A DNA stretch of 64,000 nucleotides from an uncultured Candidatus Actinomarina sp. (GCA_902582695.1 CACHTH010000005.1:4955-68954), one strand, 5' to 3'. Counted from the first letter of the stretch, positions 37,123-64,000 are shown. Numbers and translations are program-made. The notes: generated from the sequence alone by a model not told the origin.

Positions 37123-37125
37123 GTT

Positions 37126-37740
37126 ATGAGTGACAGTTTTGGTTTAATAAAAGGATTGAAAGTAACTTTCAAAGAATTATTTAGAAAGTCAGTTACCGAC
37201 AAATATCCAAAAGAATTTAGAGAAAAGCCCCAAAGATTTCATGGTCGTCATGTTTTAAATAAGTATGAAGACGGCATGGAAAAGTGTATAGGTTGTGAGC
37301 TATGTGCAGGAGTTTGTCCAGCACAATGCATTTATGTTCGAGGAGAGGATAATCCAGAAGAGAACCCTGTAAGCCCAGGGGAGAGATACGGATTTATTTA
37401 TGAAATCAATATGCTCAGGTGTATTTACTGTGCGTTATGTGTGGAAGCCTGCCCAACTGAAGCAATCACTATGACTTCTCTTTTTGAGATGAGTGTTGCT
37501 AATAGGTCCGAGGCAATATTTGACAAAGAGGTATTAGTTGTAAAAGATGATGGAACTCCTAACACCCATGAGGAACAAACTAAGCTTACTAATTTTGATG
37601 ATTTGAATACATCTGATGGATGGATGAGAGCAACCTCTCCTAATGGAAATCCAAATTTTCAAAATGTTGTAAATTGGTCAGGTTCACTTGGAGTAGGAAA
37701 GAAACCTCCTGAAGAAGGACAGACATTGGAGGAAGAGTAA
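37126..37740 (+). CDS. nuoI: NADH-quinone oxidoreductase subunit I
   Basis: Two 4Fe-4S motifs are present: CIGCELCAGVCP and CIYCALCVEACP. Length is 204 aa. Confidence 0.93.
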   Translation: MSDSFGLIKGLKVTFKELFRKSVTDKYPKEFREKPQRFHGRHVLNKYEDGMEKCIGCELCAGVCPAQCIYVRGEDNPEENPVSPGERYGFIYEINMLRCIYCALCVEACPTEAITMTSLFEMSVANRSEAIFDKEVLVVKDDGTPNTHEEQTKLTNFDDLNTSDGWMRATSPNGNPNFQNVVNWSGSLGVGKKPPEEGQTLEEE

Positions 37741-37741
37741 G

Positions 37742-38269
37742 TTGGTTGAGGCGCTTTTATTCTTCGCTCCAGCAAGTCTCATTATCATAGGCGCACTCAT
37801 TGTTATATTTGCCAAAAACCCTGTACATAATGCTATGGGTTTAGTTATGACACTGGTTTCCTTAGCAATAATCTATATAACTTTAAATGCAACTTTTGTT
37901 GCAATGGTTCAAATGTTAGTTTATGCAGGAGCAGTTATGACTCTATTTTTGTTTGTGATAATGATGATTGGGGTAGATAAAAAAGAACAAACTACTGACT
38001 CTATTAAAGGTCAAACATTTTTAGTGAGTGGAGTATTTTTAATTCTCATTTCCCTTTTAGCATATGTTGCAATAAGTTCAGACTTCAAGTGGGATCTCTG
38101 GTTCCCACCTGTTGAGTTTGATGCAGAAGGTACACCACAATTAATTGCAGGCGCACTTTTTACAGAGTGGATATTTCCATTTGAAATCATTTCTTTACTT
38201 CTTATTGTTGCCACCGCTGCAGCTATAGCTTTAGCTTATGATACTAAGAAACGAAATACTAATGCTTGA
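37742..38269 (+). CDS. nuoJ: NADH-quinone oxidoreductase subunit J
   Basis: TTG start. A 5-TM protein with [18 protein letters not shown]. Length is 175 aa, in the expected operon position. Confidence 0.88.
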
Positions 38270-38570
38270 AGTAACTACCGATTGGTATCTTACACTTGCA
38301 GCGATTCTCTTTTCAATAGGGTTTCTAGGAATGATGATTAGAAAAAATGCTCTCATTATGTTTATGTGTATTGAATTAATGCTCAACGCAGTAAACCTAA
38401 CTTTTATTTCTGCATCAAAACATTTTGGACAGGTTGATGGTCAAGTCTTTGTATTTTTTGTTCTTGTAGTAGCAGCAGCTGAAGTAGTAGTTGGCCTTGC
38501 GATTATTGTTTCTATATTTAGAAAGCAGTCATCTGCATCAGTAGATGTATTGAATGTATCAAGAGGTTAA
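38262..38570 (+). CDS. nuoK: NADH-quinone oxidoreductase subunit K
   Basis: I preferred ATG 38262 (8-nt overlap with nuoJ) to the longer ORF-track start 38238. A 3-TM protein with [11 protein letters not shown] and [11 protein letters not shown]. Confidence 0.88.
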
Positions 38571-40473
38571 ATTGGAATTAATTTTTCTTCTCCCAATCTT
38601 TCTACCTTTTTTAACTGCTATCTTCCTTTTTCTAAACAAAAAATTATTTAATGAATTAATCACAAACTTTTTTACTTTAAATAGTGCACTCTTGTCATTT
38701 GCAATTGCAGCTTATTCATTCATTACCTTAGCGCTTGATAAATTTAAACCTGTAAACGTTGAGTTGTTTCAATGGATTTCTAATCCTGACATAAGCATTG
38801 GTTTTACTCTTGATGGACTATCTGGAATTATGCTGATCTTAGTAACTGGACTATCTTTTGTAATTCAACTTTTTTCTACTTCTTATATGGAAAAGGACGA
38901 AAATCATTGTAATTATTTTGTGTATTTTAACTTTTTTGTTTTTTCAATGTTACTTCTAGTCATGTCATCAAACTTCTTAGTGATGTTCTTTGGTTGGGAA
39001 TTAGTTGGTTTGAGTTCATATCTATTAATTTCATTTTGGTCTAAAAAACCAGCTGCTGCAAAAGCCGGTAATAAAGCATTTGTTATAAATAGAGTTGGGG
39101 ATTTTGGATTTTTAATTGGATTAATGATTATTTTAGATACTTTTAATACGTTTGATTTTTATAAAATTTTACAAAATACTACTGGAATAGCTGAGTCTAC
39201 TATTACCGCAATATCCCTCTTTTTATTGCTAGGTGCTTTTGGTAAATCCGCTCAATTCCCTCTTTTTAGTTGGCTTCCAGATGCCATGGAAGGTCCAACT
39301 CCTGCAAGCGCTCTTATTCACGCAGCCACAATGGTTACTGCAGGAGTGTTTATGCTTGTCAGGATATCTCCCTTATTACAACACTCAAAAATAGCTAGCT
39401 TATTGATTATAATTTTTGGACTTATAACGGCACTTCTTGCTGCATTTTCTGCCATAAATCAGTTTGATATCAAAAAGGTATTGGCATATTCAACAATTTC
39501 TCAGCTCGGATTTATGTTTATTGCAATTGGGGCAGGGGCTTATGTCGCTGCAATTTTTCATTTAGTCACTCATGCATTTTTTAAAGCACTTTTGTTTCTT
39601 GGCGCTGGTGCTGTTATTCACTCTATGCACCACGAACAGGATATCAGAAAAATGGGTGGACTTAGAAAAAAAATGCCAATTACTGCATCAATGATGGGAA
39701 TAGGAACTCTTGCAATATCAGGTATTCCTCCTCTTGCAGGTTTTTGGTCAAAAGATGAAATACTTGCTTCCGTTTTTGTAAATGGAGGTATTTATTATGT
39801 TTTTTGGGCTTTAGCATTAGGTGCGGCTTTTCTTACAGCATTCTATATGGGAAGACATTGGTTGCTAATTTTTGAAAAAGATAATGGTTTTGAACACTCA
39901 GATGTTGCTGAAGCACCAAAAGCAATGACGAGACCCCTGCTACTTTTAGGTATATTTTCTATATTTATTGGTTTTATAAATACACCATTTTTTCATGGTC
40001 TAGAAAAAGTTTTACACGTGACTTTAGAGAATGTTGAAGTAACGCATTTACCAAAGGGCATTACATTAGTTGTATTAGCAGTACTCTCTATTGGTGCTGG
40101 TTTCACAGGACTAATTATTGCTTTTCTCTTATTTGGAATGGAGCTTCATAAAAGAATTGACTTGAGAAAATTTAAACTTGAAAGTCCTATCAACCTAGTT
40201 AAAGATCTATCCTCAAATGTTTTATATTTAAATAAATTTGGTAATTTTTTCTTTGTCTCCGGCATGAAGAACCTTAGTCGCAAAGTAGCAGTTGTTGTTG
40301 ATGGAATGTTGATTGATGGATCTGTTAACTTTGTATCAACTGCATTTAATAAAAGTTCAAAAATTACATCTACAACTCAGACTGGTTTAGTGAGAAATTA
40401 TGTCGTTTATTTTGGTTTATTTTTACTACTTCTAATTGGATTGTTTATCGCTACATCATTGGTGCCAAGATGA
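38554..40473 (+). CDS. nuoL: NADH-quinone oxidoreductase subunit L
   Basis: [16 protein letters not shown] and [35 protein letters not shown] are present. Length is 639 aa. An alternative TTG start at 38572 follows AAGAGG. Confidence 0.92.
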
Positions 40474-41957
40474 TTTCTATTATGTTCTCTTTGTTATTAG
40501 TTCCACTTTTTAGTGCATTACTTATCTTTTTGATTCCAAATTCAAGAAAAGAGACATTTAGACCAATTGGAATTGCCTTTTCTTTAATAACGTTAACTCA
40601 ATGTGTTTATTTGCTATTTGGGGAATATGCAAAAACAGAATTTACAATTTTATCATCTTTTCAATGGATACAGTCTTATGGAATTAATCTACATTTCGGT
40701 CTCTCTGGAATGTCGACACTTTTGTTATTGCTTAGCTCATTATTAGTATTTGTTTCATTACTTTCTATTGGCAAAGATCACTCTGAAAGCAAAGGATTTG
40801 TTGGATCATTGTTAATGTTACATTTTGCAATCAATGGTGTATTTATTAGTGGTGATTTAATTTCATTATTTATATTTTTTGAGGCTTTACTTATTCCTAT
40901 GTATTTCCTAATGGGAATATGGGGAGGTGAGAATAGAAGATACGCAACTATAAAGTTCATTCTGTACACTGTTTTTGGTTCGGTATTTATTTTTATTGGA
41001 ACAGTTTACACAGCAGTATTAAGCTTTGGAGTTAATGGTAGGCTTGCTGTAGATTTTGAAACATTGTCTTCATTAAGTTTGCTTGAATCACAGTCAAAAA
41101 CTTTATTTTTATTATTTACATTTGGGTTTTTAATTAAAGTGCCTATATTTCCACTGCATACTTGGTTGCCAGATGCACACGTAGAAGCTCCAACTGCTGG
41201 AAGTATAATGTTGGCAGGAGTGCTTCTAAAAGTTGGTGCTTACGGAATACTAAGAGTGTCCATACCATTTTTTACAGAAGGTTTTTTAGCTTACAAAAAT
41301 CTGATTGCAATACTGTCTGTAATTGGAATTATTTATGGTGCTATTGTTGCCATTGCTCAGATCGATATCAAAAAGCTGATTGCTTATTCTTCAGTTAGCC
41401 ATATGGGATTTGTTATGCTTGGAATTTCAGCTGGTGGATTTTTAAGTATTGAGGGAGCAATCATACAAATGATAAATCACGGTATTACTGCAGGTGCTTT
41501 GTTTATGCTGGTTGGATTTATATACGAAAGAAGACATACTCGAAAAATTAGTGACTTTGGCGGAGTCAAGATATCTATGCCAAGGTATGCAGCAATATTT
41601 CTATTTACATCATTCGCCTCTATAGGCCTTCCTGGTTTAAATGGTTTTGTTGGAGAGTTCATGATTCTTATGGGAAGCTTTAACAGCTACAAAATTCTGA
41701 CATCCTTTGCAGCATTTGGTGTAGTTTTAGCTGCAATATATATGTTATGGGCATATCAAAGAATGTTTACTGGACCTATTAAATATGAAGAAAATGAAAG
41801 CTTAACTGATCTCAATTCCCGTGAAACAGCGTCAATAGCTCCATTAGTTTTATTAATGTTATTTATTGGAATTTATCCAAACTATATTGAGAGTTTTGTA
41901 ATTCAAGAGGCAAGTTTTTTGAGTGATACTATAGCAATGTTTAAGGACCTAAAATGA
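40470..41957 (+). CDS. nuoM: NADH-quinone oxidoreductase subunit M
   Basis: PLHTWLPDAHVEAPTAGSIMLAGVLLK is present. Length is 495 aa. Confidence 0.92.
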   Translation: MISIMFSLLLVPLFSALLIFLIPNSRKETFRPIGIAFSLITLTQCVYLLFGEYAKTEFTILSSFQWIQSYGINLHFGLSGMSTLLLLLSSLLVFVSLLSIGKDHSESKGFVGSLLMLHFAINGVFISGDLISLFIFFEALLIPMYFLMGIWGGENRRYATIKFILYTVFGSVFIFIGTVYTAVLSFGVNGRLAVDFETLSSLSLLESQSKTLFLLFTFGFLIKVPIFPLHTWLPDAHVEAPTAGSIMLAGVLLKVGAYGILRVSIPFFTEGFLAYKNLIAILSVIGIIYGAIVAIAQIDIKKLIAYSSVSHMGFVMLGISAGGFLSIEGAIIQMINHGITAGALFMLVGFIYERRHTRKISDFGGVKISMPRYAAIFLFTSFASIGLPGLNGFVGEFMILMGSFNSYKILTSFAAFGVVLAAIYMLWAYQRMFTGPIKYEENESLTDLNSRETASIAPLVLLMLFIGIYPNYIESFVIQEASFLSDTIAMFKDLK

Positions 41958-43426
41958 GAACAGTTTCTGAGATATTAGGAATAAATTATGTAGTAATTGC
42001 ACCTACATTGGCACTATTGCTGACAGTTATTGTTTTATTATTTTGCACAATTACCATTTCAACTCCAATGTACGTAAAAAAATATGTATCGTTTGTTGGA
42101 ATCTTGCTAACTTTATTTACAATATTTTTAAAGTTCGGTTTATTTCTAACTGATGGTGTCTCTTCTTATTTCACAGAAAAAATTCTTCTTGATGAGTTTG
42201 CCCTTGTTGGAAACGTACTTGTTGGAATGGTTTTGCTTTTTACTTTTAATTCTTTCTGGAAAACTTCAGAATTAATAGAAGACAAAACTACTGAAGCTTT
42301 AATACTAATTTTAATGTCTGCATCTGGATTTTTATTAATGATTGATGCTGAGAACTTCATAATGTTATTCATAGGTTTAGAAATTGGTTCAATTAGTTTA
42401 TATGCTTTAGCAGGACTTAACAGAGGAGATCAATTAAGTAATGAAGCTGCTTTGAAATATTTCTTACTTGGTTCACTTGCTTCGTGTATATTTGTATACG
42501 GTATTGCGTTAATTTATGTCTCACTATCAATAATTGGTGTATATGAAACTAGTATTGCAATTAGTTTCATAGGACCAGATAATGTTCCACTAACAACATT
42601 TGTTGGATTGATATTGATAACTGTTGGATTATTATTTAAAGTTGCAGCTGCACCTTTTCAAGCATGGGCACCAGACGTATACCAGGGTTCTCCTACTGGA
42701 TATGTGGGATATATGGCAACTGTTGCAAAGGTTTCATCATTCATAGTCCTTGCAAGACTTGTTGCAGTCTCTTTAACATTCATTATTGATCAATTTGATT
42801 TATTTTTTGGTGCCGTTGTAATCTTGTCAGTACTCGCTGGGGCTTTATTTGCTGCAAACCAAACTGATTTGAAAAGACTAATTGCTTATAGTGGAGTTAT
42901 TCAATCAGGCTTTATACTTTCTGGTATATCTTCAGGAGTTTATGGAATAAGTGCATCAACGTTTTATTTAATAACTTACATTATCCAATTAATTGGAATC
43001 TTTACAGTTTTTTCAATAATAAGCGGTCAATTGAGTTCGGACTTTCAAATCTCAAATATCTCAGGGTTATTTAAGGAAAATAAATTTATAACAATTACAT
43101 TTTCAATATTCATGCTTGGCCTTGCAGGATTACCATTAACAAGTGGATTCGTCTCGAAATTTATCCTTATTACCAATCTTTGGTCATATGAGAGATATAT
43201 ATTGGTAACAGTCTTAATGCTGACTACAGTTGCGGGATTTTATTTTTACTTACGACCAATTTGGGTAGCAGCAGTTGAGAAAACAGAAAATGTAGTTGAA
43301 AAAATACAGGTTAAAAACTCAGACAAACTACTACTAGGTTTATTGGCTGCTTTAACAATATATTTTGGATTACTTCCAGATACCCTTGTTAATATAACTC
43401 GCTGGATGGTCGAAGGTTATCTCTAA
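41954..43426 (+). CDS. nuoN: NADH-quinone oxidoreductase subunit N
   Basis: AAAPFQAWAPDVYQGSPT is present. Length is 490 aa, and it is the last gene of the operon. Confidence 0.92.
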   Translation: MRTVSEILGINYVVIAPTLALLLTVIVLLFCTITISTPMYVKKYVSFVGILLTLFTIFLKFGLFLTDGVSSYFTEKILLDEFALVGNVLVGMVLLFTFNSFWKTSELIEDKTTEALILILMSASGFLLMIDAENFIMLFIGLEIGSISLYALAGLNRGDQLSNEAALKYFLLGSLASCIFVYGIALIYVSLSIIGVYETSIAISFIGPDNVPLTTFVGLILITVGLLFKVAAAPFQAWAPDVYQGSPTGYVGYMATVAKVSSFIVLARLVAVSLTFIIDQFDLFFGAVVILSVLAGALFAANQTDLKRLIAYSGVIQSGFILSGISSGVYGISASTFYLITYIIQLIGIFTVFSIISGQLSSDFQISNISGLFKENKFITITFSIFMLGLAGLPLTSGFVSKFILITNLWSYERYILVTVLMLTTVAGFYFYLRPIWVAAVEKTENVVEKIQVKNSDKLLLGLLAALTIYFGLLPDTLVNITRWMVEGYL

Positions 43427-53219: not shown

Positions 53220-54244
53220 TGGCATTTGAAAATTTAATTATACGAGCAAGATCAGTAACAAAGTCTTACGAAAAAGAGACTGTTTTGTCAGATTTTAATT
53301 TGGACGTTTGGAATGGATCAATTGTTGGCGTGTTGGGAATGTCAGGCTCAGGAAAAACTACTGCATTAAGATTAATTGCTGGATTTGAAAAACCAGACTC
53401 TGGTTTAATAGAAATGAGAAATCAAATCATTTCAAGCGATGAAGTTTTTGTACCTCCTGAAGATAGAAATGTTGGTATGGTTTTCCAAGACTATGCATTA
53501 TTTCCACATCTAGATGTTGAAAAAAATATATCTTTTGGACTTTCCAAAAATGAAATAAATGAAGGAAGATTAGAAGAAGTTTTAGAAATGTGTAATTTAG
53601 AAAATTATAAAAATAAATATCCTCAAGAACTATCTGGTGGTCAACAACAAAGAGTTGCACTTGCAAGGGCGATAGCTCCCGGTCCGGAAGTAATTCTTCT
53701 AGATGAGCCATTTACAAGCTTAGATGCACATATGGCCAGGGAATTAAGAGACGAAGTAGTTTATCTCTTAAGAAAAACTGAGACTACTGCGATAATTGTA
53801 ACTCATGATCAAGAGGAAGCATTGTCAGTGTGCGATGTAGTTAGTGTGTTAGAAAATGGAACAGTTATACAAAGCGCTACGCCGCAAGAAATTTATTTAA
53901 ATCCAGTTAGCCAAACTGTGGCGAACTCTGTAGGTGACCCCAATATATTAAAGGGCTACTCAGTTAACGGTAGAGTTGAGACATCTTTAGGAACTTTTGT
54001 ATCTGCTTATGATGGTGCTTTAGATGTATCAATTAGACCTGAGTGTATTGAACTCACTTTAGATTCAGACGGAAGTTACTTGGTTAAAGAATGTACCTTC
54101 TATGGCCATGATCAGGTAATATCATTCCAAAATAGTAAAGGTGAAGTTTTTAGAGCACGTTCTTTACCTAATACAATATTTGAATCTGGCGATAAGGTAA
54201 ATATAAATATTTCAGAGGTTACAACATTCCCCTCAAAGGCTTGA
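53219..54244 (+). CDS. Fe(3+)-type ABC transporter ATP-binding protein (FbpC-like)
   Basis: GMSGSGKTT, LSGGQQQRVALARA and ILLDEPFTSLD are present, plus a C-terminal TOBE-like domain. Length is 341 aa. Its start overlaps the permease stop (TAATG). Confidence 0.88.
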   Translation: MAFENLIIRARSVTKSYEKETVLSDFNLDVWNGSIVGVLGMSGSGKTTALRLIAGFEKPDSGLIEMRNQIISSDEVFVPPEDRNVGMVFQDYALFPHLDVEKNISFGLSKNEINEGRLEEVLEMCNLENYKNKYPQELSGGQQQRVALARAIAPGPEVILLDEPFTSLDAHMARELRDEVVYLLRKTETTAIIVTHDQEEALSVCDVVSVLENGTVIQSATPQEIYLNPVSQTVANSVGDPNILKGYSVNGRVETSLGTFVSAYDGALDVSIRPECIELTLDSDGSYLVKECTFYGHDQVISFQNSKGEVFRARSLPNTIFESGDKVNINISEVTTFPSKA

Positions 54245-54427
54245 TTTAATATAAGAAACTCTTCCTGCAAGAGATTGTAATTCAATTTCAAGTTCCGAAA
54301 GCTTTGAAGTAGCACGGGCATAATCTCCCTCTGCTATATATTCCCTAGAATTTGCAAGAGACTTAATTAATGTGTCCATATCAAAAATTAGTGATTCAAT
54401 TTCTGAAAAAATTAATTGTTTATCCAT
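54233..54427 (-). CDS. hypothetical 64-aa helical (coiled-coil-like) protein, divergent from the heliorhodopsin gene
   Basis: MDKQLIFSEIESLIFDMDTLIKSLANSREYIAEGDYARATSKLSELEIELQSLAGRVSYIKSSL. A 64-codon open frame is unlikely by chance in AT-rich DNA because stop codons are frequent. There is no Shine-Dalgarno sequence. Its 3' end overlaps fbpC by 12 nt (convergent). Confidence 0.5.
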   Translation of the reverse strand: MDKQLIFSEIESLIFDMDTLIKSLANSREYIAEGDYARATSKLSELEIELQSLAGRVSYIKSSL

Positions 54428-54480: not shown

Positions 54481-55284
54481 ATGGAAACAAAAATTCAAAA
54501 ATTAAAAAAGTTTAACTTAATTATGGGAACAGTCCATCTTATTCAGGGAGGGCTTTTATTTTGGCTTGGAACAGTTGTTAATTCAGATTTTGTTGTTCCA
54601 ATAACCTTGACTCAACTTGTTGGAGTTGGCTCTCCTAATGATCCATCAAGCTTTGCTCTTGTTCCAGAATTAGAAATTTGGACAGAAGTTACAAATTTTG
54701 GTCCAGCAGTTGCAACTTTCTTACTTGCGTCAGCTGTCGCTCACTATTTAATTTCCGGTCCTTTTTATAAAAAGTACAAAGAAGACTTATCAAAAGGAAT
54801 AAATAAGGTCAGATGGATTGAATACTCTATAAGTGCATCAGTCATGATTGTTCTTATTGCACTTTTAGTTGGCATCTATGATATTTGGGCATTAGCTGGA
54901 ATATTTTTTATGAACGCAGCTATGTGTTGGTTTGGATGGATGATGGAAGTTCACAATCAGTACACAGAAAAAGTTGATTGGACAAGCTACATAATGGGTT
55001 GCCTAGTTGGTGTTGCCCCTTGGATTTTTATATTTATTAATCTAATAGGTGATGGGGTAGCAACTGACTCTAATCCCCAAGGAGTTCCACAATTTGTTGT
55101 TTGGATTTTTGTTAGTATATTTTTATTCTTTAATACCTTTTCAATAAATATGATTTTGCAATATAAGCAAGTAGGTAAATGGAAAGACTATCTATACGGT
55201 GAAAGAGCTTACATTTGGTTAAGCTTGCTTGCTAAGACTTGTCTTGCATGGCAAGTCTTTTTTGGAACATACCAACCGAATTAA
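54481..55284 (+). CDS. heliorhodopsin (7-TM retinal-binding protein, inverted topology family)
   Basis: A 267-aa protein with 7 TM helices. The blocks FNLIMGTVHLIQ, SAVAHYLIS, RWIEYSISASVMIVLIA, FLFFNTFS and GERAYIWLSLLAKTCLAWQVF match, from memory, heliorhodopsin 48C12 (…FNRIAGVFHLLQ…, …RWVEYSLSSSVMIVLIA…, …GERAYIVLSLVAKSALAWQIF…). Lys252 is the predicted Schiff-base lysine and Glu114 the predicted counterion. Confidence 0.87.
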   Translation: METKIQKLKKFNLIMGTVHLIQGGLLFWLGTVVNSDFVVPITLTQLVGVGSPNDPSSFALVPELEIWTEVTNFGPAVATFLLASAVAHYLISGPFYKKYKEDLSKGINKVRWIEYSISASVMIVLIALLVGIYDIWALAGIFFMNAAMCWFGWMMEVHNQYTEKVDWTSYIMGCLVGVAPWIFIFINLIGDGVATDSNPQGVPQFVVWIFVSIFLFFNTFSINMILQYKQVGKWKDYLYGERAYIWLSLLAKTCLAWQVFFGTYQPN

Positions 55285-55359
55285 ATACTTATTTAATTTT
55301 TTTTCCAAAAAATATAAGCAGGATAATTATTAAAAATAAACCAATATAAGAAAGCGCCA

Positions 55360-56154
55360 TTAGTTTTTAGATCTAAATTTTCTAAATCCTAATACTAGCA
55401 ACAACAACGGAACTGCAATTATTCCAAAAGATACTACAAAACCAATAATTGATTCAATCCAATTTAATGCTCTTTGAACATAATAATTCCATGAAAACAG
55501 CGATACTCCAGAACCCTCTCTAATATCTAATGTCAAAGATGAGTACGATACTGAATTTTCATAATATTCTTTTTGTCCTTCCAAAACTTGAATGTCTTGA
55601 TTTATGTAACGAAGTTGAGACTGCACTTGAAGCTTATCTGATGTCGATACAGCTTCTGCTTTAATTTCTTCAAGTGCTTCCTTCTCATCATTTAATGATT
55701 TCAATCTTGAATCTATATCAAGAACATATTTTGTTACATCATTTGCATTTAAATTTATGTTTGTAAACTTTGAAATATCCTCTACTGCCTTTAGAAAACT
55801 CTCAAAATCCTCAGCTGGAATATTCATAGTTAAGTTATAACTTTTAAGTCCTTGGTAATTTGTTGAAAGATACGTATTAGAAATATTTCCATTGAAATTC
55901 TTTACCAAGAGTTCTACTTCATCAATTGTATTTTCAAAATTAGATGAACTAACGTCTGTGCTTGCATAAGCAGTCTTAATGATATAGTCACCTTGTGAAA
56001 AAGAAGATTCTCTTGAGAAAGCTACTTCAGAAGTAGCCATATCTTCTACTCCTCCAAAATACGGCTCAGGAGCTCCCATTGTCATTTCACTGGACTGGGA
56101 ACAAAAAGAAAATGTTAACAGAAGAAGCAAAATTTTTAAATTTTTCACACTCAT
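55360..56154 (-). CDS. DUF4349-like lipoprotein with C-terminal TM anchor
   Basis: It has a signal plus lipobox (LLLLLTFSFCSQ). The central region NANDVTKYVLDIDSRLKSLNDEKEALEE resembles the DUF4349 pattern (DVT..y.D...RL). It has a C-terminal TM helix and a basic tail. Length is 264 aa. Confidence 0.6.
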   Translation of the reverse strand: MSVKNLKILLLLLTFSFCSQSSEMTMGAPEPYFGGVEDMATSEVAFSRESSFSQGDYIIKTAYASTDVSSSNFENTIDEVELLVKNFNGNISNTYLSTNYQGLKSYNLTMNIPAEDFESFLKAVEDISKFTNINLNANDVTKYVLDIDSRLKSLNDEKEALEEIKAEAVSTSDKLQVQSQLRYINQDIQVLEGQKEYYENSVSYSSLTLDIREGSGVSLFSWNYYVQRALNWIESIIGFVVSFGIIAVPLLLLVLGFRKFRSKN

Positions 56155-56166
56155 AGTATAAGTAAC

Positions 56167-57255
56167 TTAGAAGTTAGAGAATTCAATAATTGGAATTTTT
56201 AACTCCTCTTCGGATATTCCTCCATGGTAACCCTTTAATTTTGCCGAAAGATGTTTTGGATATACGATATTTTTATCTTCAACTAAAAAACAAAAATCAG
56301 GATAAATTGACTGCAAAAATTCATCTATTGGATCTCCTAGAAGATAAGACAAATCATGTTGCTCCAATAAAACACCTGGTATTTCAGAAAAAGTTTCTAA
56401 AACATTTTCTTTAGCCCCATTTATATAAACTGAACGTTGGTCTCCGTATATTTGTAGGTCATCACCATAATTCAAATGATGACGAAATTCATCGTTAATA
56501 TTTACAAGACCGTGATCAGCAGAAATTATTGTTTTTGTTTTTTTGTTACTAATATTTGAAATCTCATTAACCAATTTTTCAAATTTAGTTATTTCAATTT
56601 GCCACTCATCTGAATTCACTCCAAATATATGGGCTGTAACGTCAATTAATGGATAGTAGATAAAATTAAACCTATTTTCTAAAATCGAAGAATCTGATAA
56701 CAACTCTAAAAGACTTTGTGCATCATCATAAGGAATAGTATTCGATTGCTCATACAAAAAATTTGATAGTGGACTTCCAACCAAGTTTCTAGGTTGAAAA
56801 TTCGAAGCATAAATTTTGTTGTCTTTAAAAATTTTCCAAATTGAACTTTGTTTTTGATAATAATTATTTGATAATAAATTTTTATTATCCTCATTCCAAT
56901 TTAAAGCATTTATGATGCCATATTTTGATTTGTCATACATGTAATATCCTATCAAACCATGTTCAATTGGATTCTTTATGAAGGATATTGATGATAAGGC
57001 AACGTTAGTTGATGAAGGAAATGTTGTATTAATAGATTGAGTAACGTTCTTATTCAATGAAGAATCTGTACTGCTTAGATTTTTATAACCCAGACCATCA
57101 GCCAGTATGAAGTTTATAGTATCTGCTTCGTAAAGGTCTTGTGACAAAAGTTCAAATCTTGTATCTATTTCAACTTTGTCACGAACTACTGCTTTAAATA
57201 TTTCTTTCGAAAGATCTATTAGGTTAGGTTCTTGTAAAAAATTTTTATTAATCAC
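56167..57255 (-). CDS. alkaline-phosphatase-superfamily metalloenzyme (nucleotide pyrophosphatase/phosphodiesterase-like)
   Basis: The AP-superfamily motif set appears in order: ILADGLG (metal Asp), TTFPSST (nucleophile region), IDVTAH, ISADHGL and KGYHGG. Length is 362 aa with no signal peptide. Confidence 0.72.
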   Translation of the reverse strand: MINKNFLQEPNLIDLSKEIFKAVVRDKVEIDTRFELLSQDLYEADTINFILADGLGYKNLSSTDSSLNKNVTQSINTTFPSSTNVALSSISFIKNPIEHGLIGYYMYDKSKYGIINALNWNEDNKNLLSNNYYQKQSSIWKIFKDNKIYASNFQPRNLVGSPLSNFLYEQSNTIPYDDAQSLLELLSDSSILENRFNFIYYPLIDVTAHIFGVNSDEWQIEITKFEKLVNEISNISNKKTKTIISADHGLVNINDEFRHHLNYGDDLQIYGDQRSVYINGAKENVLETFSEIPGVLLEQHDLSYLLGDPIDEFLQSIYPDFCFLVEDKNIVYPKHLSAKLKGYHGGISEEELKIPIIEFSNF

Positions 57256-57336
57256 TTATAAAAAATCTTACAAAAAAATTACACTGAAGTTTGAGAAAAA
57301 ACTAAACTTTTTAGAGGTTTAACTAAACTATAAATT

Positions 57337-57705
57337 ATGATTTCTTATTTTCAAGATTACGTGACCATAGGAGCAGTACTAGGTTTTGGCCTCTTTCTTG
57401 TCGTATTGCTTCTTGGAGTAGCTTCAGTACTAAGACCAAACAAGCCTTACGAAGAAAAGTTGCAAACTTATGAATGTGGTGTTGATCCAGTTGGAACTGG
57501 ATGGAGTCAAACATACGTAAGGTATTATATATTTGGCTTGCTTTTCGTAATATTTGATGTCGAAGCGGTCTTCATATTTCCATGGGCTATCAACCTAGAA
57601 AAACTTGGCTACTTTGGCTTAATTGAAATGTTTGTTTTTATATTTATTTTGTTAATTGGACTTATATACGCAATAAGAAAGGATGTCTTAAAATGGGAGT
57701 CATAG
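57337..57705 (+). CDS. nuoA: NDH-1-type complex subunit A, second copy
   Basis: A 3-TM protein with QTYECGVDP. Length is 122 aa. It is the first gene of a second nuo-like operon. Confidence 0.88.
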
Positions 57706-58190
57706 ATAAATTCGGCCTACCAAAACCTATATCCTCAGTATTCAACTGGGCCAGATCATACTCGCTATGGTACTTTCAATTTGGATTAGCATGTTGCGCT
57801 ATTGAGGTTATGGCTGTAAGCGGACCAAGACATGATTTTATGAGGTTAGGAGTTATTCCACTTCCAGCATCTCCACGTCAGGCGGATTTTATGATTGTTG
57901 CAGGAACAGTAACAGATAAAATGGCTCCTTCTGTGAAAAGGCTTTATGACCAAATGCCAGAGCCAAAATATGTTATTTCAATGGGATCTTGTTCTAATAG
58001 TGGTGGACCTTATTGGGACTCTTACTCAGTCACCAAGGGAGTAGATCAATTAATCCCTGTTGATGTTTATGTTCCCGGTTGTCCACCAAGACCTGAGGCA
58101 TTGCAGGAAGGAATTATTCTTCTACAGAAAAAAATTCGCGGAGAAGACATGAAAGAGAAGTGGTTAGAAGTTCAAACTGAGCCAATTTAA
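57693..58190 (+). CDS. nuoB: NDH-1-type complex subunit B, second copy
   Basis: [39 protein letters not shown] and [11 protein letters not shown] are present, so all four N2 cysteines are there. Length is 165 aa. Confidence 0.92.
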
Positions 58191-58191
58191 A

Positions 58192-58737
58192 ATGGAAGAA
58201 TTTTTTAACAATATAAAAGAAAGCTTTAAAGAGGCAACTCTTGAGTTTGAAACAATCAATATAAAAATTGATTCAACAGAGTGGATTGATGTACATAAAA
58301 AACTTAGAGATGAATTTAATTTAAAATTTTTCTCTTGGCTCTCAGCAATAGATTGGGACAATGAAGTTTCTGTTGGCGAAGCACCAAAAGAGAGCGTTTC
58401 CCCTAGTTTTGAAATAATTACATGCCTGTCAGATTTAGACAATACTAACTTAGTTACTGTATCAACAAGTATTAGTAAATCAGAGCCAAATATTAACTCA
58501 CTTATTGATGTGTACGCTGGTGCAAATTGGCATGAAAGAGAAGCGTACGAAATGTTTGGTATAAATTTTGAAAATCATCCAAATCTTGAAAAACTTTATC
58601 TTCCTGATGGATATGAAGGAAATCCTATGCTGAAATCTTTTGAGTTAATAAGCAGAGAAGTTAAACCTTGGCCGGGAGATGTAGATGTTGAGGGAATGCC
58701 AGAAGAATCAGAAAGTGATGGATCAGTAGATGGTTAA
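58192..58737 (+). CDS. nuoC: NDH-1-type complex subunit C, second copy
   Basis: NWHEREAYEMFGINFENHPNLEKLYLPDGYEGNPMLK is present, followed by an acidic C-terminal tail. Length is 181 aa. Confidence 0.88.
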   Translation: MEEFFNNIKESFKEATLEFETINIKIDSTEWIDVHKKLRDEFNLKFFSWLSAIDWDNEVSVGEAPKESVSPSFEIITCLSDLDNTNLVTVSTSISKSEPNINSLIDVYAGANWHEREAYEMFGINFENHPNLEKLYLPDGYEGNPMLKSFELISREVKPWPGDVDVEGMPEESESDGSVDG

Positions 58738-59926
58738 TGCTTTAGATCCACAGAATATGAACAGTTTTTCAGAGGCTTCTGTATCAGTTGAAATTGAAAC
58801 TGAAGATATGACACTTAACATCGGACCTCAACATCCATCTACTCATGGAGTTTTAAGACTGGTAGCAAAAGTAGATGGTGAAAAAGTACATGATGTGAAA
58901 CCTGTTTTGGGCTATATGCATCGCGGATATGAAAAGCTCGCAGAAGTAAGATCCTATCCACAAATTACAACACTTGTAAATCGAATAGATTGGGTTGCAG
59001 GGTTTTCAAATGAGATTCCATTCATTGCTGGAGCTGAAAGATTAATGGAAATAGAAGTACCTGAAAGAGCGAAGCATATCAGACTAATTCTTACTGAGAT
59101 GGCCAGAATTTCTTCACATTTCGTCTTTAATGGTGCATACGCTCTTGAGGTTGGTGCACTAACCCCAATTTTTTATGCGATGGAAGACAGGGAACGAGTT
59201 TTAGATTTAATAGAGTCAGTAACTGGAGGACGATTTCATCCAAACTTTAATCGTATTGGAGGAGTAAAACCTGCAGCCGGAGCAGGGCCCACTTCGAAAA
59301 AAAATATTCAAGATTTACCTGCTGGATTTTATAGAGATACAAAAGTAGCCATGGAAAAAGTTATACAGGCAGCTGATCAATTTCAAAATTTAATCGGTGG
59401 AAATGAAGTTTTTAAGAAAAGAACCAAAAATGTAGGCGTTCTCACTGCAGAAACAGCAGAAGCTTATGGTGTTTCTGGCCCAATACTCAGGGCATCAGGA
59501 GTTAAGTCAGACTTAAGAACCCAGACAGATTACCTGCCATATGATCAATTTGATTATGATATTCCAGTCGGAGAAAATGGAGATTGTTACGACAGATGGG
59601 ATGTCAGAGTAAAAGAAATGGTTGAATCTGCAAAAATTGTTTTACAAGCAATCGACTCTATGCCATCTGGCCCACTACAAGCAAAGGTGCCCAAAGTTAT
59701 CAAAGTTCCCCAAGGACGTACCTATGTAAGAGCAGAAAATCCAAAAGGTGAAATGGGTTACTATATAGTCTCAGACGGTGGGTTAGGGCCTTACAGACTT
59801 AAAGTTCGTACAGCTTCGTTCAGCAATGTTTCTATTTTACCTATTATGCTTGAGGGGGCTTTACTCCCAGACTTAATTGCAATTATGGGAAGTTTAGACT
59901 TTGTTCTAGGAGATGTAGATAGATGA
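58730..59926 (+). CDS. nuoD: NDH-1-type complex subunit D, second copy
   Basis: NIGPQHPSTHGVLRL is present and the C-terminus ends LGDVDR. Length is 398 aa. Confidence 0.92.
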   Translation: MVNALDPQNMNSFSEASVSVEIETEDMTLNIGPQHPSTHGVLRLVAKVDGEKVHDVKPVLGYMHRGYEKLAEVRSYPQITTLVNRIDWVAGFSNEIPFIAGAERLMEIEVPERAKHIRLILTEMARISSHFVFNGAYALEVGALTPIFYAMEDRERVLDLIESVTGGRFHPNFNRIGGVKPAAGAGPTSKKNIQDLPAGFYRDTKVAMEKVIQAADQFQNLIGGNEVFKKRTKNVGVLTAETAEAYGVSGPILRASGVKSDLRTQTDYLPYDQFDYDIPVGENGDCYDRWDVRVKEMVESAKIVLQAIDSMPSGPLQAKVPKVIKVPQGRTYVRAENPKGEMGYYIVSDGGLGPYRLKVRTASFSNVSILPIMLEGALLPDLIAIMGSLDFVLGDVDR

Positions 59927-60894
59927 CAGAAGTTTTAGTCAAGGTTGGATTTCTTGCGATTGCTGCTTTGAACGGAGCAATTATATTCACAATAATGGAT
60001 GTAAAGGGTGCCTCATGGATGCAGCGAAGACCGGGTCCTTTACATGTAGGACTTAGAGGTTTCATATTTCCTCTTGCGGAAATACTTAAATTTGTTCAAA
60101 AAGAAGACATTATCCCTACAGAAGTTGATAGGCCCGTGTTTAAATGGGCACCTGCTTATGTTATGGTTTCTTGCGTCGCACTTTTTGCAGTAGTCCCAAT
60201 GAGCCCAACTTTGGTAGTAGCAGATTTAGAATTGGGTGTTTTCTTTGCACTTGCGATCAGCTCTTTGGGAACTATAGGAGTGCTAACTGCTGGATGGTCA
60301 TCAGCAAACAAATATTCCCTAATGGGTGGTTTGAGAGCTGCAGGACAGCTTATAGCTTATGAACTTCCGTTAATTCTTGCTGTTGTTGGAGTAGTTATTC
60401 AAGCTGAAACTATGTCACTAGTTGGAATAGTAGAAAAGCAAATTGAATGGGGAGTACCTTTTGTAGTTGGGGGACAGATTGTAGGATTCTTAATTTTCAT
60501 GGTTGCTGCAACAGCTGAAATGATGCGAGTACCGTTTGATATGCCAATTGGTGAATCAGAACTAACTATGGGTTTTATGACAGAATACTCTGGTATCAGG
60601 TTTCTTATATTTTATATTTCTGAATACATGAATATGTTTATTTTGTGTGCAATTGCTTCAACATTATTCCTTGGTGGTTACCATGTACCACTCCTTCCAA
60701 CTGAATGGGTAAACTTTTATGGACCAGTAGTTCTTTTGACAAAGACAGCTATTTTAGGTTTTATCTTGGTTGCAATAAGATGGTCCCAACCAAGATTCCG
60801 AGAAGATCAACTTCAAAATCTTGCATGGAAGATACTTATTCCTGCATCTTTAGTTAATATTCTTGTAACTGCAGTTATGAAGGTTGGATTTTAA
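59923..60894 (+). CDS. nuoH: NDH-1-type complex subunit H, second copy (directly follows subunit D)
   Basis: WMQRRPGP and TEYSGIRFLIFYISEYMNM are present. Length is 323 aa. An ATGA overlap with the nuoD copy leaves no room for nuoE, nuoF or nuoG. Confidence 0.92.
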   Translation: MTEVLVKVGFLAIAALNGAIIFTIMDVKGASWMQRRPGPLHVGLRGFIFPLAEILKFVQKEDIIPTEVDRPVFKWAPAYVMVSCVALFAVVPMSPTLVVADLELGVFFALAISSLGTIGVLTAGWSSANKYSLMGGLRAAGQLIAYELPLILAVVGVVIQAETMSLVGIVEKQIEWGVPFVVGGQIVGFLIFMVAATAEMMRVPFDMPIGESELTMGFMTEYSGIRFLIFYISEYMNMFILCAIASTLFLGGYHVPLLPTEWVNFYGPVVLLTKTAILGFILVAIRWSQPRFREDQLQNLAWKILIPASLVNILVTAVMKVGF

Positions 60895-61379
60895 TGAAAA
60901 CATTTAAACCAAAAGTGCCTGGATTTTTAATTGGAATAAAAATCGTAATTGTTAATATGTTAAAAACTTTGTCTCCTTTCCATTCAAAACCAAATGTAAA
61001 CTATCCGTTTGAAAAGGAGAAAGTTGCACCAAGAGCAAGGGGTGTGATCGCTTTAGATCAAGAAGCATGCACTAGTTGCATGCTTTGTGCCCGTCAATGC
61101 CCAGACTGGTGTATTTATATTGAGGGCCATAAAGAATTACAACCTCCATCTAAACCTGGGGGTAGGCAAAGAAGTAGAGCCGTTCTAGATAGGTTCGATA
61201 TTGATTATGCATTATGTATGTACTGTGGAATTTGTGTAGAAGTTTGTCCTTTTGATGCATTATTTTGGTCACCAGAATATGAATATTCTGAATTTAACAT
61301 GGGCGACATGTTGCACGACAAAGAACGTTTGGATGATTGGTTAAAAACTGTTCCAGAGGCTGAAGGTCTAGAAAGCTAA
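60894..61379 (+). CDS. nuoI: NDH-1-type complex subunit I, second copy
   Basis: CTSCMLCARQCP and CMYCGICVEVCP are present. Length is 161 aa. Confidence 0.9.
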   Translation: MKTFKPKVPGFLIGIKIVIVNMLKTLSPFHSKPNVNYPFEKEKVAPRARGVIALDQEACTSCMLCARQCPDWCIYIEGHKELQPPSKPGGRQRSRAVLDRFDIDYALCMYCGICVEVCPFDALFWSPEYEYSEFNMGDMLHDKERLDDWLKTVPEAEGLES

Positions 61380-61381
61380 AA

Positions 61382-61900
61382 ATGGAAATTTTTGAAATTG
61401 TAACTTATTTCGTTCTTCTTGCGCTTCTTTCAACTGCAATAAGGGTAGTTACAACCTCAAACGTTATTCATGCAGCTATTTCATTAGTTTTTACTTTGGC
61501 TTTAACGGCAATATTGTTTTTAATGTTGTCAACAGAGTTCGTAGCACTTGTGTTGGTTCTCGTTTATATTGGAGCAGTAATAGTTCTTTTCTTGTTCGGT
61601 ATTATGATTACACGTGCTCCCCTTGGCAAAAATGCAGAACTTGATAACGATAAAAATAAAAAATTGGGAGCAGCAATAGCTGGATCAATTTTTCTTCTAT
61701 TCTCATATATATTAATTAATGGTTTTGATGGCGATGTGACGATAACATCCGGTTCTTCAACGGAGCTATTAGGTGAAATACTACTTAGTAGATTTGTATT
61801 CCCATTTGAACTAGTGTCTTTTGTTTTACTCGCAGCTTTAATTGGAGGCATAACGCTTGCTAGGAAAGACGAAGCATTAATTGATGAGGATCAAGTATGA
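61382..61900 (+). CDS. nuoJ: NDH-1-type complex subunit J, second copy
   Basis: A TM protein with LVLVYIGAVIVLFLFGIMI. Length is 172 aa, in the expected operon position. Confidence 0.85.
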   Translation: MEIFEIVTYFVLLALLSTAIRVVTTSNVIHAAISLVFTLALTAILFLMLSTEFVALVLVLVYIGAVIVLFLFGIMITRAPLGKNAELDNDKNKKLGAAIAGSIFLLFSYILINGFDGDVTITSGSSTELLGEILLSRFVFPFELVSFVLLAALIGGITLARKDEALIDEDQV

Positions 61901-62202
61901 TTGTACAGCCTGTATTAGTTGTTGCAGCTGCTCTATTTTCTTTAGGTATTTATGGAATCTTAGTTAGAAGAAATGCCGTAATGGTTTTATTGTCAATTGA
62001 GTTAATTTTGAATTCTGTCAATATCAACTTTATTATATTTGATACCATGCTTGCAGATACATTGATGCAAGGACAAATTTTCACAATTTTTATTATTACA
62101 ATTGCTGCTGCTGAGGTTGGAATTGGTCTTGCGATTGTACTCATGTTGTTTAGAAATAGACAAACCGCAAACATTAATGAATTTGATTTAATGAAATGGT
62201 AA
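61897..62202 (+). CDS. nuoK: NDH-1-type complex subunit K, second copy
   Basis: A 3-TM protein with SIELILNSVNI and AAAEVGIGLAI. Length is 101 aa. Confidence 0.88.
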   Translation: MIVQPVLVVAAALFSLGIYGILVRRNAVMVLLSIELILNSVNINFIIFDTMLADTLMQGQIFTIFIITIAAAEVGIGLAIVLMLFRNRQTANINEFDLMKW

Positions 62203-64000
62203 AAACAAATATTAATTTATTCGCTGAGGGTGAGGTCGTCTACACAGATGGCGGCGTACTTGCAGAATTTGCTTGGGTCCTTGTAGTTCTTCCTTTTATA
62301 GCTGCACTAATAATTACTTTTGCTGGAAAGAGCCTTCCACTAAAGGGTGCTGAAATTGCATTAGGCACCATCGGAATAATTTTTATTTATAGCTTAGCTT
62401 TAATGTACCTTCATGTAACTGAAGGGGTTGCCAATGAATTTTTTATTAATGTTGGAAATATCGGACAATTTGATATTGAATTCGGTTGGGTAGTAGATGG
62501 TCTATCAATCATGATGTACTTTGTTGTTGGACTTGTTGCGCTTCTTGTATTTATTTATGCGACAAATTATATGGAAGGTGAAATAAGATATACATTTTTC
62601 TTCACGTCCTTGACTTTATTTGCAGGAAGTATGCTTGTATTAGTTTCTTCACCTACGTTAATCCAAATTTTAATTGGTTGGGAACTAGTTGGAGTCTGTT
62701 CGTATTTACTTATAGGGCATTACTGGGAAGTCAAGGATAACTCTTCAGCAGCTATGAAGGCTTTTATTACAAATAAGATTGCTGATGTGGGCTTAATGAT
62801 TGGAATAATAATTCTTGCTTTAAATACTGGCACTATGAGGATATCTGAAATTCTGTATCAAGCAACGCATGATTATCCAGCAATAAAAAATGTCGCATTT
62901 GTAGCCGGGGTATTGCTATTTATAGGTGCAATGGGTAAAAGCGCACAGTTTCCATTACATGTCTGGCTACCCGACGCAATGGCAGGCCCAACTCCAGTTT
63001 CAGCACTAATGCATGCTGCAACAATGGTCACTGCAGGAGTCTACTTATTAGCTAGAATGTTCCCTTTTTATCAAGGAATAGCAAATGAAGCATTAGACAT
63101 TGTAATGTTATTTGGAGTAATAACTCTTCTTACGGCTGGACTTATAGCAATTGTTCAAGATGATCTAAAGAAAGTTCTCGCATATTCAACTGTAAGTCAG
63201 CTTGGTTATATGGTTGCCGCAATTGGTTCTGGAGCGTACACTGCAGCACTCTTTCATTTGTGGACACATGCGTTTTTTAAAGCTCTATTATTTCTAGGGG
63301 CTGGATCAGTAATACATGCAGTACACAGTAATAGTATGTTAGAAATGGGTGGTTTGAGGAAAGTCATGCCAAAAACTTTTTCAACATTTATTATTGGAAC
63401 AGTAGCACTTGCCGGTTTACCACCATTCGCAGGTTTCTTTTCTAAGGATGAAATCCTTGCATCTTTTAATCATGAAGGTGAAACAACCTTTTTCTTTATA
63501 GCTGTATTAGGTGCTTTCATAACTGCTTTTTATATGACTAGAGCAGTTTGCCTTACTTTCTTAGGAGAGTACAGAGGTCACGGTCATCCACATGAGTCAG
63601 ATTCCATGATGACCACACCTTTAGTTGTACTGGCTGTATTTGCAGCAGCTTCTGGATGGGTTAATATTCCAGGGGTTTACACAGGCTTTACCAAATGGGT
63701 AACTACTCGTAAAAATCCTATTATTGAATATCACCCAGAAAGCTTCGACTTATTTGCTCTAGGACTCGGTTTAACTGCAGGATTGCTAGGGATAGGTCTA
63801 GGTTACTATTTATACCAACTTCAAGGAAGTGCTGAGACTGGAGACGACAAAATTAAAATCGAACCTATTTGGAAAGTATTAGAAAATAAATACTACATTG
63901 ATGATTTCTATTTCAAATTTATTATTGATCCAATCAAATTAAATATGGCTAAAGCAGTTGATGCATTTAACACAAATGTAATAGATAGATTTGTAAATGG
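62196..64000 (+). CDS. nuoL: NDH-1-type complex subunit L, second copy (3' end outside the window)
   Basis: Not in the ORF track because no stop is reached. ATG 62196 overlaps the nuoK stop. My hand translation gives GWELVGVCSYLLIGHYW and [37 protein letters not shown]. The frame is still open at 64000 (...IDRFVNG). Confidence 0.88.
   Translation, partial: MVKTNINLFAEGEVVYTDGGVLAEFAWVLVVLPFIAALIITFAGKSLPLKGAEIALGTIGIIFIYSLALMYLHVTEGVANEFFINVGNIGQFDIEFGWVVDGLSIMMYFVVGLVALLVFIYATNYMEGEIRYTFFFTSLTLFAGSMLVLVSSPTLIQILIGWELVGVCSYLLIGHYWEVKDNSSAAMKAFITNKIADVGLMIGIIILALNTGTMRISEILYQATHDYPAIKNVAFVAGVLLFIGAMGKSAQFPLHVWLPDAMAGPTPVSALMHAATMVTAGVYLLARMFPFYQGIANEALDIVMLFGVITLLTAGLIAIVQDDLKKVLAYSTVSQLGYMVAAIGSGAYTAALFHLWTHAFFKALLFLGAGSVIHAVHSNSMLEMGGLRKVMPKTFSTFIIGTVALAGLPPFAGFFSKDEILASFNHEGETTFFFIAVLGAFITAFYMTRAVCLTFLGEYRGHGHPHESDSMMTTPLVVLAVFAAASGWVNIPGVYTGFTKWVTTRKNPIIEYHPESFDLFALGLGLTAGLLGIGLGYYLYQLQGSAETGDDKIKIEPIWKVLENKYYIDDFYFKFIIDPIKLNMAKAVDAFNTNVIDRFVN

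Follow-up and report, generated by a model that had tools for sequence, protein, structure and literature searches.

An 11-gene complex I-type operon of Candidatus Actinomarina with a tryptophan in the NuoD quinone site and a linked NDUFAF7-type methyltransferase gene

The 64,000-nucleotide stretch of DNA analysed here (the window; uncultured Candidatus Actinomarina sp., GCA_902582695.1 CACHTH010000005.1:4955-68954) carries, from position 57337 to its end, a second nuo operon (copy 2; genes nuoA2 to nuoN2) that lacks nuoE, nuoF and nuoG, in addition to a complete 14-gene nuo operon (copy 1). It is proposed that copy 2 encodes an 11-subunit complex I-type enzyme, designated Nuo11, which would consist of the Q-module and the proton-pumping membrane arm without the NADH-oxidising N-module, would be fed by a ferredoxin-like carrier and would have a remodelled quinone pocket; by analogy with N-module-less relatives we lean towards this reading with moderate confidence. 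More tentatively, the operon may belong to a subfamily of complex I-type enzymes that extends across the Actinomycetota, in which the quinone-site tyrosine is always tryptophan and NuoD is tied to an NDUFAF7-type methyltransferase; this proposed subfamily spans the 11-gene operons of Acidimicrobiia and stand-alone nuoD2/methyltransferase pairs in Streptomyces, Micromonospora, Nocardioidaceae and others. The sequence analysed comprises the window and the 10-kb flanks of related loci.

The locus itself has been described before. Lopez-Perez et al. (2020, PMC7771536) report that in Actinomarinales two nuo clusters, one of them "truncated, missing the subunits EFG", flank a heliorhodopsin gene, with an Fe3+ ABC transporter and an iron repressor between the two nuo copies; Bulzu et al. 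(2021, bioRxiv 10.1101/2021.02.01.429150) give the gene string afuABC, heliorhodopsin, nuoABCDHIJKLMN, NDUFAF7, htpX, pspE and adenosine kinase, and term the 11-subunit cluster the "ancestral type" of Moparthi and Hagerhall. Since our locus matches both descriptions, the finding of an 11-gene operon is already known; locus and organism group are those of the published cluster, from which nothing here differs, and NuoD2 is 98% and 99% identical to NuoD of the Actinomarina single-amplified genomes AG-447-P23 and AG-910-M10. The tryptophan at position 88 of NuoD2, its clade-wide spread, the wider NDUFAF7 linkage and the non-canonical start of nuoN go unmentioned in the passages of these two sources that were consulted.

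Gene content and integrity of the operon

Nine tightly packed open reading frames (ORFs) occupy the + strand between 57337 and the window end in the order nuoA-B-C-D-H-I-J-K-L, exactly as given in a preliminary description of this DNA, and each matches its expected Pfam family with E-values of 1e-28 to 1e-96. The last two genes of the operon and the gene behind it lie past the window and are listed from the related contig L010; the identities are those to the copy 1 protein.

57337-57705, +: nuoA2, 122 aa; PF00507 (E = 3.4e-36); 34% identity
57693-58190, +: nuoB2, 165 aa; PF01058; cluster N2 subunit; 52% identity
58192-58737, +: nuoC2, 181 aa; PF00329; acidic C-terminal tail, pI 4.2; 40% identity
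58730-59926, +: nuoD2, 398 aa; PF00346; quinone-site subunit; 39% identity
59923-60894, +: nuoH2, 323 aa; PF00146 (E = 2e-96); 38% identity
60894-61379, +: nuoI2, 161 aa; Fer4 families; two [4Fe-4S] clusters; 30% identity
61382-61900, +: nuoJ2, 172 aa; PF00499; 33% identity
61897-62202, +: nuoK2, 101 aa; PF00420; 41% identity
62196-64000, +: nuoL2, first 601 of 671 codons, the rest cut by the window end; PF00361/PF00662; 42% identity
L010 6655-8223: nuoM2, 522 aa; PF00361
L010 8226-9704: nuoN2, about 492 aa; PF00361
L010 9780-10724: NDUFAF7-like methyltransferase, 314 aa; PF02636

All junctions from nuoA2 to nuoL2 are overlaps or gaps of 1-3 bases. The stop codon of nuoD2 overlaps the start codon of nuoH2 by 4 nucleotides (ATGA, 59923-59926), so no gene is hidden between the two, which confirms that E, F and G are absent rather than missed. 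For nuoL2 the ATG at 62196 (MVKTN...), as in related contigs, is a more likely start than the GTG at 62199.

The NuoD2 protein occurs in identical form in marine metagenome contigs from 750 index blocks, some of them longer than 1 Mb. Ten contigs with identical NuoD2 were fetched; one of them, L010, shares 6.4 kb with the window at 99.0% identity. In all ten, nuoL2 (671 aa at full length in L001 and L010) is followed by nuoM, nuoN, the NDUFAF7-like methyltransferase gene, an M48 peptidase gene, a rhodanese gene and a PfkB kinase gene, and none of the ten has nuoE, nuoF or nuoG after nuoN2. The length of nuoN2 differs among gene callers (352, 405 or 469 aa in L010, L001-L009 and L013). Its conserved N-terminus contains no ATG, GTG or TTG, the reading frame is uninterrupted from immediately behind the nuoM stop codon, and the first 97 codons differ between L010 and L002 by nine synonymous and no non-synonymous changes; the only conserved candidate start is an ATT located 5 nucleotides after a conserved GGAGGA. 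Translation of nuoN2 thus probably starts at this AUU, giving a protein of about 492 aa, and the disagreement among callers is a start-codon problem rather than decay.

Comparison of nuoA2-L2 with L002, which has 90.5% DNA identity to the window over the aligned stretch, gave 106 synonymous and 4 non-synonymous differences, a ratio of non-synonymous to synonymous rates (dN/dS) of 0.010; nuoM2 and nuoN2 are under similar purifying selection, and no gene of the operon has an internal stop. The 11-gene operon is intact and kept under strong purifying selection. A decaying or non-functional duplicate, for which the absence of three core genes, the replacement of a key tyrosine and a nuoN without canonical start codon could be adduced, is effectively refuted by this dN/dS ratio, the uninterrupted frames, the nuoN2 substitution pattern and ATT placement described above, the retention of all cofactor ligands and the conservation of the operon across the class. 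Actinomarina is abundant in the surface ocean and has a very small genome, so that its retention of 11 or more genes for this enzyme implies a real role.

The cofactor ligands were verified by alignment, in agreement with the preliminary description. Cys34, Cys35, Cys100 and Cys130 of NuoB2, whose best match in the PDB is mitochondrial PSST (196 bits), correspond in the alignment to the N2 ligands of solved PSST/Nqo6 chains; NuoI2 possesses two CxxCxxCxxxCP motifs, CTSCMLCARQCP and CMYCGICVEVCP, whose eight cysteines align with those of TYKY/NuoI chains. The ligands for clusters N2, N6a and N6b are all present in copy 2. In the membrane arm, the best PDB match of NuoL2 is cyanobacterial NdhF (397 bits), aligned over residues 22-661 including the C-terminal lateral helix, and the WELVG, KAF, KSAQFPLHVWLPDAM and SKDEIL stretches are conserved with respect to solved NdhF/NuoL. 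The conserved Lys/Glu motifs of the antiporter-like subunits are present as well; those of NuoM2, NuoN2 and NuoK2 were read directly from the translations, with a putative mapping to canonical numbering.

The quinone site of NuoD2 and the linked methyltransferase

NuoD2 was aligned residue by residue with Thermus thermophilus Nqo4, cyanobacterial NdhH and the Drosophila 49 kDa subunit. It keeps the quinone-ligating histidine (His39), and the second ligand, Tyr87, is replaced by Trp88 (codon 58991-58993), so that the motif reads NRIDW instead of RMDY, RWDY or RLDY. Tryptophan occupies this position in all 120 close NuoD2 homologs, whereas NuoD1, the NuoD of copy 1, has tyrosine (TRMDY). In a neighbour-joining tree with Kimura distances, the 48 actinobacterial Trp-type NuoD proteins form a single clade (60 of 60 bootstraps), with the stand-alone genes nested within it. 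Two archaeal NuoC/D fusions with tryptophan, P0133 from a Methanofastidiosia metagenome-assembled genome (MAG) and P0164 from a Methanonatronarchaeales MAG, lie outside the actinobacterial clade; the substitution therefore arose more than once.

The Trp clade also differs consistently from the Tyr-type 11-gene operons at Met63, Gly167, Phe391 and Asp395 of NuoD and at two positions of NuoH. By homology to the known fold, residues 63, 88 and 391-395 of NuoD fall in segments that match the NiFe-binding motifs of hydrogenases and would form the quinone head-group pocket. The pocket of Nuo11 would thus be remodelled by Trp88 in place of Tyr87 together with the clade-specific Met63, Phe391 and Asp395 around the former NiFe site. 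Gene set and phylogeny place copy 2 among the 11-subunit enzymes, but of the two quinone ligands expected in their NuoD it retains just the histidine. NuoD2 itself has a single cysteine and hence no NiFe site, so it is not a hydrogenase; membership in the group 4 [NiFe] hydrogenases (Mbh/Ech/Hyc) was also rejected on the PDB matches, among which Mbh, Mbs and FHL are the weakest.

The same substitution has been seen in NuoD of piericidin-producing Streptomyces, also actinobacteria, where it was called rare and read as self-resistance, and an engineered Tyr87-to-Trp change severely lowered decylubiquinone reduction and conferred strong inhibitor resistance (Degli Esposti 2015, PMC4758237). That reading concerned the 14-subunit enzyme, whereas here tryptophan marks a whole paralog clade, with 48 loci in GTDB and an oligotrophic marine bacterium among its members; instead of being rare, the change is fixed throughout this widespread clade. 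The proposed subfamily, if real, would reinterpret the self-resistance reading of Y87W. Should the tryptophan pocket alter the chemistry, it would define a functionally distinct class of respiratory enzymes, with another acceptor or binding pose, natural insensitivity to Q-site inhibitors or a bias towards reverse operation as possible effects.

Trp-type nuoD genes also stand alone (motif ANRHDW) at 23 loci in Streptomyces, Micromonospora, Nocardioidaceae, Glycomyces and others (L038, L041, L042, L044, L046-L048, L050, L051, L053, L054, L056, L061, L062, L064, L065, L069, L071, L073, L079, L082, L085 and L088), and no other nuo gene is found near them on the same strand within 10 kb. In Streptomyces, a partial nuoA2-N2 cluster without nuoD is presumably located elsewhere in the genome.

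Linkage of the methyltransferase gene was examined with a PF02636 profile built from the Actinomarina protein and its relatives. The gene immediately follows nuoN in Actinomarina and 12 further Acidimicrobiia operons, and it lies within 10 kb of stand-alone Trp-type nuoD, often immediately adjacent, in 21 of the 23 cases (loci with the gene: L010 9780-10724, L013 18543-19559, L018-L027, L029, L030, and L044 7514-8521 plus 20 other stand-alone nuoD loci). None of the 32 Tyr-type operons has a PF02636 gene next to it. In humans, NDUFAF7 adds two methyl groups to Arg85 of NDUFS2; the counterpart of this residue in Thermus Nqo4 is Thr64, at a distance of about 7 Å from cluster N2 (PMC3829151). At this position NuoD2 has Arg65 (58922-58924; HRG), which is invariant in the Trp-type alignment, and NuoD1 has threonine (HTG), so NuoD2 is the likely substrate of the methyltransferase. 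By analogy with the human enzyme, the NDUFAF7-type protein probably dimethylates Arg65 of NuoD2 next to N2. The pairing of a PF02636 methyltransferase with an HRG-containing NuoD homolog resembles the mitochondrial NDUFAF7/NDUFS2 pair, in which, however, NDUFS2 keeps the tyrosine; for NuoD2 we infer the methylation. The tryptophan site and the linked methyltransferase together offer a concrete handle shared with cultivable relatives (Streptomyces, Aquihabitans and Aeromicrobium).

As a separate feature, residues 181-193 of NuoD2 (59270-59308) form a 13-residue insertion, PAAGAGPTSKKNI, after the IGGVK motif; outside Actinomarina it occurs in just four Acidimicrobiia MAGs (L014-L017), and the aligned solved NuoD homologs all lack it.

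Evolutionary placement and electron supply

The preliminary description had regarded the 14-gene operon as a distant paralog and had judged the two NuoB copies by eye to be roughly half identical; the measured identities between the copies (30-52%, with NuoB at 52%) bear this out. The operon is as follows:

29180-43426, +: complete nuoA-N operon, 14 ORFs, paralog of copy 2; NuoE (PF01257), NuoF (PF01512, PF10589) and NuoG, confirmed with Pfam, span 31826-36035

For the placement of copy 2, the best 80 NuoD relatives were taken from 185,579 GTDB genomes, one per species, and nuoEFG is absent beside NuoD in all of these 80. The relatives fall into three groups:

Group 1: 11-gene operons in Acidimicrobiia and other unclassified Actinomycetota; 27 loci; Trp at the Tyr87 position
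Group 2: stand-alone nuoD in Streptomyces, Nocardioidaceae, Micromonospora, Glycomyces, Intrasporangium and others; 23 loci; Trp
Group 3: EFG-less nuo clusters of other phyla, mostly with the full 11-gene order; 32 loci; Tyr

The taxa of the Tyr-type relatives are Dehalococcoidia, Ignavibacteria, Acidobacteriota, Bacillales and Bacteroidota. NuoD2 shares 50-72% identity with full-length group 1 proteins outside Actinomarina and 44-72% with the NuoD proteins encoded by 11-gene operons of other orders and phyla, against 39% with NuoD1, and no sequence in the tree is more distant than NuoD1. The two copies thus diverged long ago, and copy 2 is an old paralog within a widespread clade of EFG-less operons, not the product of a recent duplication. 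With no nuoEFG behind nuoN, no decay in nuoM or nuoN and no recent duplication, the interpretation offered in the preliminary description is supported.

In Nuo11, electrons would enter not directly from NADH but from a soluble carrier of low potential that would dock at the surface formed by NuoI, NuoC and NuoD. Judging from other N-module-less relatives, this donor would most likely be reduced ferredoxin or a flavodoxin-like protein, and the simplest reading would be an enzyme that pumps protons while passing electrons from a low-potential donor in the cytoplasm to the quinone pool. Ferredoxin has been proposed as the donor for 11-subunit relatives (PMC11238625; PMC3144371). The Nuo11 enzymes of other phyla share the 11-gene set and its order with copy 2, and they too have neither an N-module nor a gene for a dedicated partner; they differ in keeping Tyr87 and in lacking the adjacent NDUFAF7-like gene, and the studied examples come from anaerobes, whereas Actinomarina is described as an aerobe and also has a 14-subunit enzyme. 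The ferredoxin-dependent NDH-1 of cyanobacteria and chloroplasts likewise possesses the same 11 core subunits without NuoEFG; its NdhF is the best solved match to NuoL2, as given above, and its NdhH is the second best to NuoD2 (320 bits). Unlike NuoD2, NdhH keeps the tyrosine, and the quinone there is plastoquinone, presumably menaquinone here; none of NdhL-S/V, including the ferredoxin-docking NdhS, is found within the operon.

The two copies of NuoI differ in the loop between the two cluster motifs, which carries a basic RQRSR patch in NuoI2. Across 38 Nuo11 enzymes this loop is neutral or basic, with an average net charge of about +0.4 to +0.6, and it is acidic (-1 to -3) in NuoI1 and in the four upstream NuoI copies, from Acidimicrobiia loci with a second nuo set, that best match copy 1. 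This charge difference is weakly consistent with a different, acidic docking partner. The whole-protein isoelectric points of the B, C, D and I subunits reveal no clear trend between the copies; only the NuoI loop is consistently different.

Several points weigh against a ferredoxin-fed Nuo11. Neither a donor protein, nor a ferredoxin-reducing enzyme, nor an NdhS-like docking subunit was identified in the window and the 10-kb flanks; the preliminary description, which saw no input module and left the donor unassigned, was fair in this respect. Ferredoxin-linked catabolism is less obvious in Actinomarina, described as an aerobic photoheterotroph (PMC7771536), than in the anaerobes with studied Nuo11. 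Because the Y87W mutation severely lowers decylubiquinone reduction, normal quinone reduction cannot be assumed. Finally, the operon lies directly behind a second nuoLMN set in many Acidimicrobiia, an arrangement that fits the sharing of NuoEFG equally well. What feeds an N-module-less complex I in aerobic bacteria is the wider question touched by these observations.

The sharing of NuoEFG is the main rival explanation, which we consider unlikely while giving it some weight. According to this explanation NuoE, NuoF and NuoG encoded by the 14-gene operon also serve the 11 subunits, yielding a second NADH:menaquinone oxidoreductase isoform whose quinone site, which may be inhibitor-insensitive, and membrane arm are different; copy 2 differs from the canonical 14-subunit enzyme in that NuoE, NuoF (with the flavin mononucleotide/NADH site) and NuoG are encoded only in the paralog. 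At least 12 Acidimicrobiia loci (L015, L018-L022, L029, L031-L034 and L036) have a same-strand ...nuoLMN end upstream of the 11-gene operon, and since this upstream set best matches copy 1 it is presumably the end of a 14-gene operon. In L020, L032 and L033 only 74-199 bp lie between the stop codon of the upstream nuoN and the first aligned residue of nuoA, so these tandem same-strand sets are probably co-expressed. The phenotype of the Y87W mutant fits an inhibitor-insensitive isoform (PMC4758237), and the streamlined 1.1-Mb genome retains the 11 extra genes (PMC7771536). On the other hand, the 11-gene operons of the closest Tyr-type relatives from other phyla stand alone, and such 11-gene enzymes are reported to work without NuoEFG (PMC11238625, PMC3144371). 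NuoB2, NuoC2, NuoD2 and NuoI2 are just 30-52% identical to their copy 1 counterparts, and the NuoI loop differs in both charge and length, so that a common NuoG docking surface would not be expected.

An F420H2:quinone oxidoreductase analogous to Fpo/Fqo, as proposed in PMC7771536, appears improbable. The same source reports that Actinomarinales encode F420 biosynthesis and F420-dependent oxidoreductases, and that the cluster has up to 35% identity to the Fpo cluster of Methanosarcina mazei; Fpo/Fqo also has a complex I-type core without NuoEFG. However, this identity is unspecific, being no more than that to any complex I, and the best solved matches are Thermus, cyanobacterial and mitochondrial proteins. 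Fpo/Fqo requires FpoF, and no FpoF/FqoF-like or FpoO-like gene is present in the operon or within 10 kb at the 27 Trp-type operon loci. Fpo is reported to have Tyr87 and to lack His38 and Asp139 (PMC4758237), the opposite of NuoD2 with its His39, Glu140 and Trp88; two cluster look-ups of 50%-identity representatives returned no Fpo-labelled protein for a check of position 87. In addition, Fpo/Fqo is listed only for Methanosarcinales, Archaeoglobales and anaerobic methanotrophic archaea, and the listed bacterial route from F420H2 to menaquinone is the soluble Ddn (PMC8498797). The closest Tyr-type relatives are found outside Actinomycetota, in Ignavibacteria, Bacteroidota and other phyla.

Complex I-type enzymes can work in either direction, and copy 2 might operate mainly in reverse, the proton-motive force, generated also by a proton-pumping rhodopsin, driving electrons from menaquinol to a low-potential carrier for biosynthesis. 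A quinone pocket without the proton-donating tyrosine would suit such a direction, the host has a proton-pumping rhodopsin (PMC7771536), and a heliorhodopsin gene is located 2 kb away. We nevertheless give this possibility little credence, because the Trp-type operon also occurs in Acidimicrobiia loci from soil and groundwater without a nearby heliorhodopsin, so that the trait is not tied to light; moreover, two opposite-strand genes separate heliorhodopsin from nuoA2, and the low-potential acceptor would be hypothetical.

Surroundings of the two operons

The tandem arrangement of the two nuo sets looks ancestral, and the approximately 14 kb that separate the operons in Actinomarina, including the heliorhodopsin and iron-uptake genes, look like a later insertion. 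The operon starts about 2 kb from the heliorhodopsin gene, as previously noted, the measured distance being 2053 bp. The genes around the two operons are:

27083-27727, -: Rex-type redox-sensing repressor (Put_DNA-bind_N and CoA_binding), upstream of the 14-gene operon
27835-29100, +: geranylgeranyl-reductase-like FAD protein, directly upstream of the 14-gene operon
54233-54427, -: ORF of 64-65 aa between an ABC ATPase gene and heliorhodopsin
54481-55284: heliorhodopsin (PF18761)
55360-56154: opposite-strand gene between heliorhodopsin and nuoA2
56167-57255, -: Phosphodiest/PglZ-family gene, the second opposite-strand gene, divergent from nuoA2

No heliorhodopsin gene was found in the flanks of the non-Actinomarina relatives of the operon, and because of this absence and of the two intervening opposite-strand genes its proximity is given no functional weight. 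A simple transcription unit of heliorhodopsin and the operon, suggested in bioRxiv 10.1101/2021.02.01.429150, is unlikely for the same two reasons.

The GC content is 30-38%. A promoter/terminator scan of 55200-57800 was uninformative, with 10 promoter-like sites compared with 13.7 in shuffled sequence. The Rex operator TTGTGAA-N6-TTCACAA was likewise rejected as a signal: the window has 10 matches with at most three mismatches, 10.7 being expected, and none lies upstream of nuoA2.

Two copy 1 subunits are longer than their counterparts: NuoD1 (30453-31829) comprises 458 aa, with about 60 extra N-terminal residues, and NuoI1 (37126-37740) comprises 204 aa, with an acidic C-terminal extension not found in copy 2. 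The Phosphodiest/PglZ-family gene occupies the same position in the four closest non-Actinomarina Acidimicrobiia operons (L014-L017), at 24-26% identity. Nine related contigs span the small ORF at 54233-54427, which has no Pfam match; eight of them have it called as a gene of 64-65 aa, and the frameshift-prone L006 has it at 47 aa.

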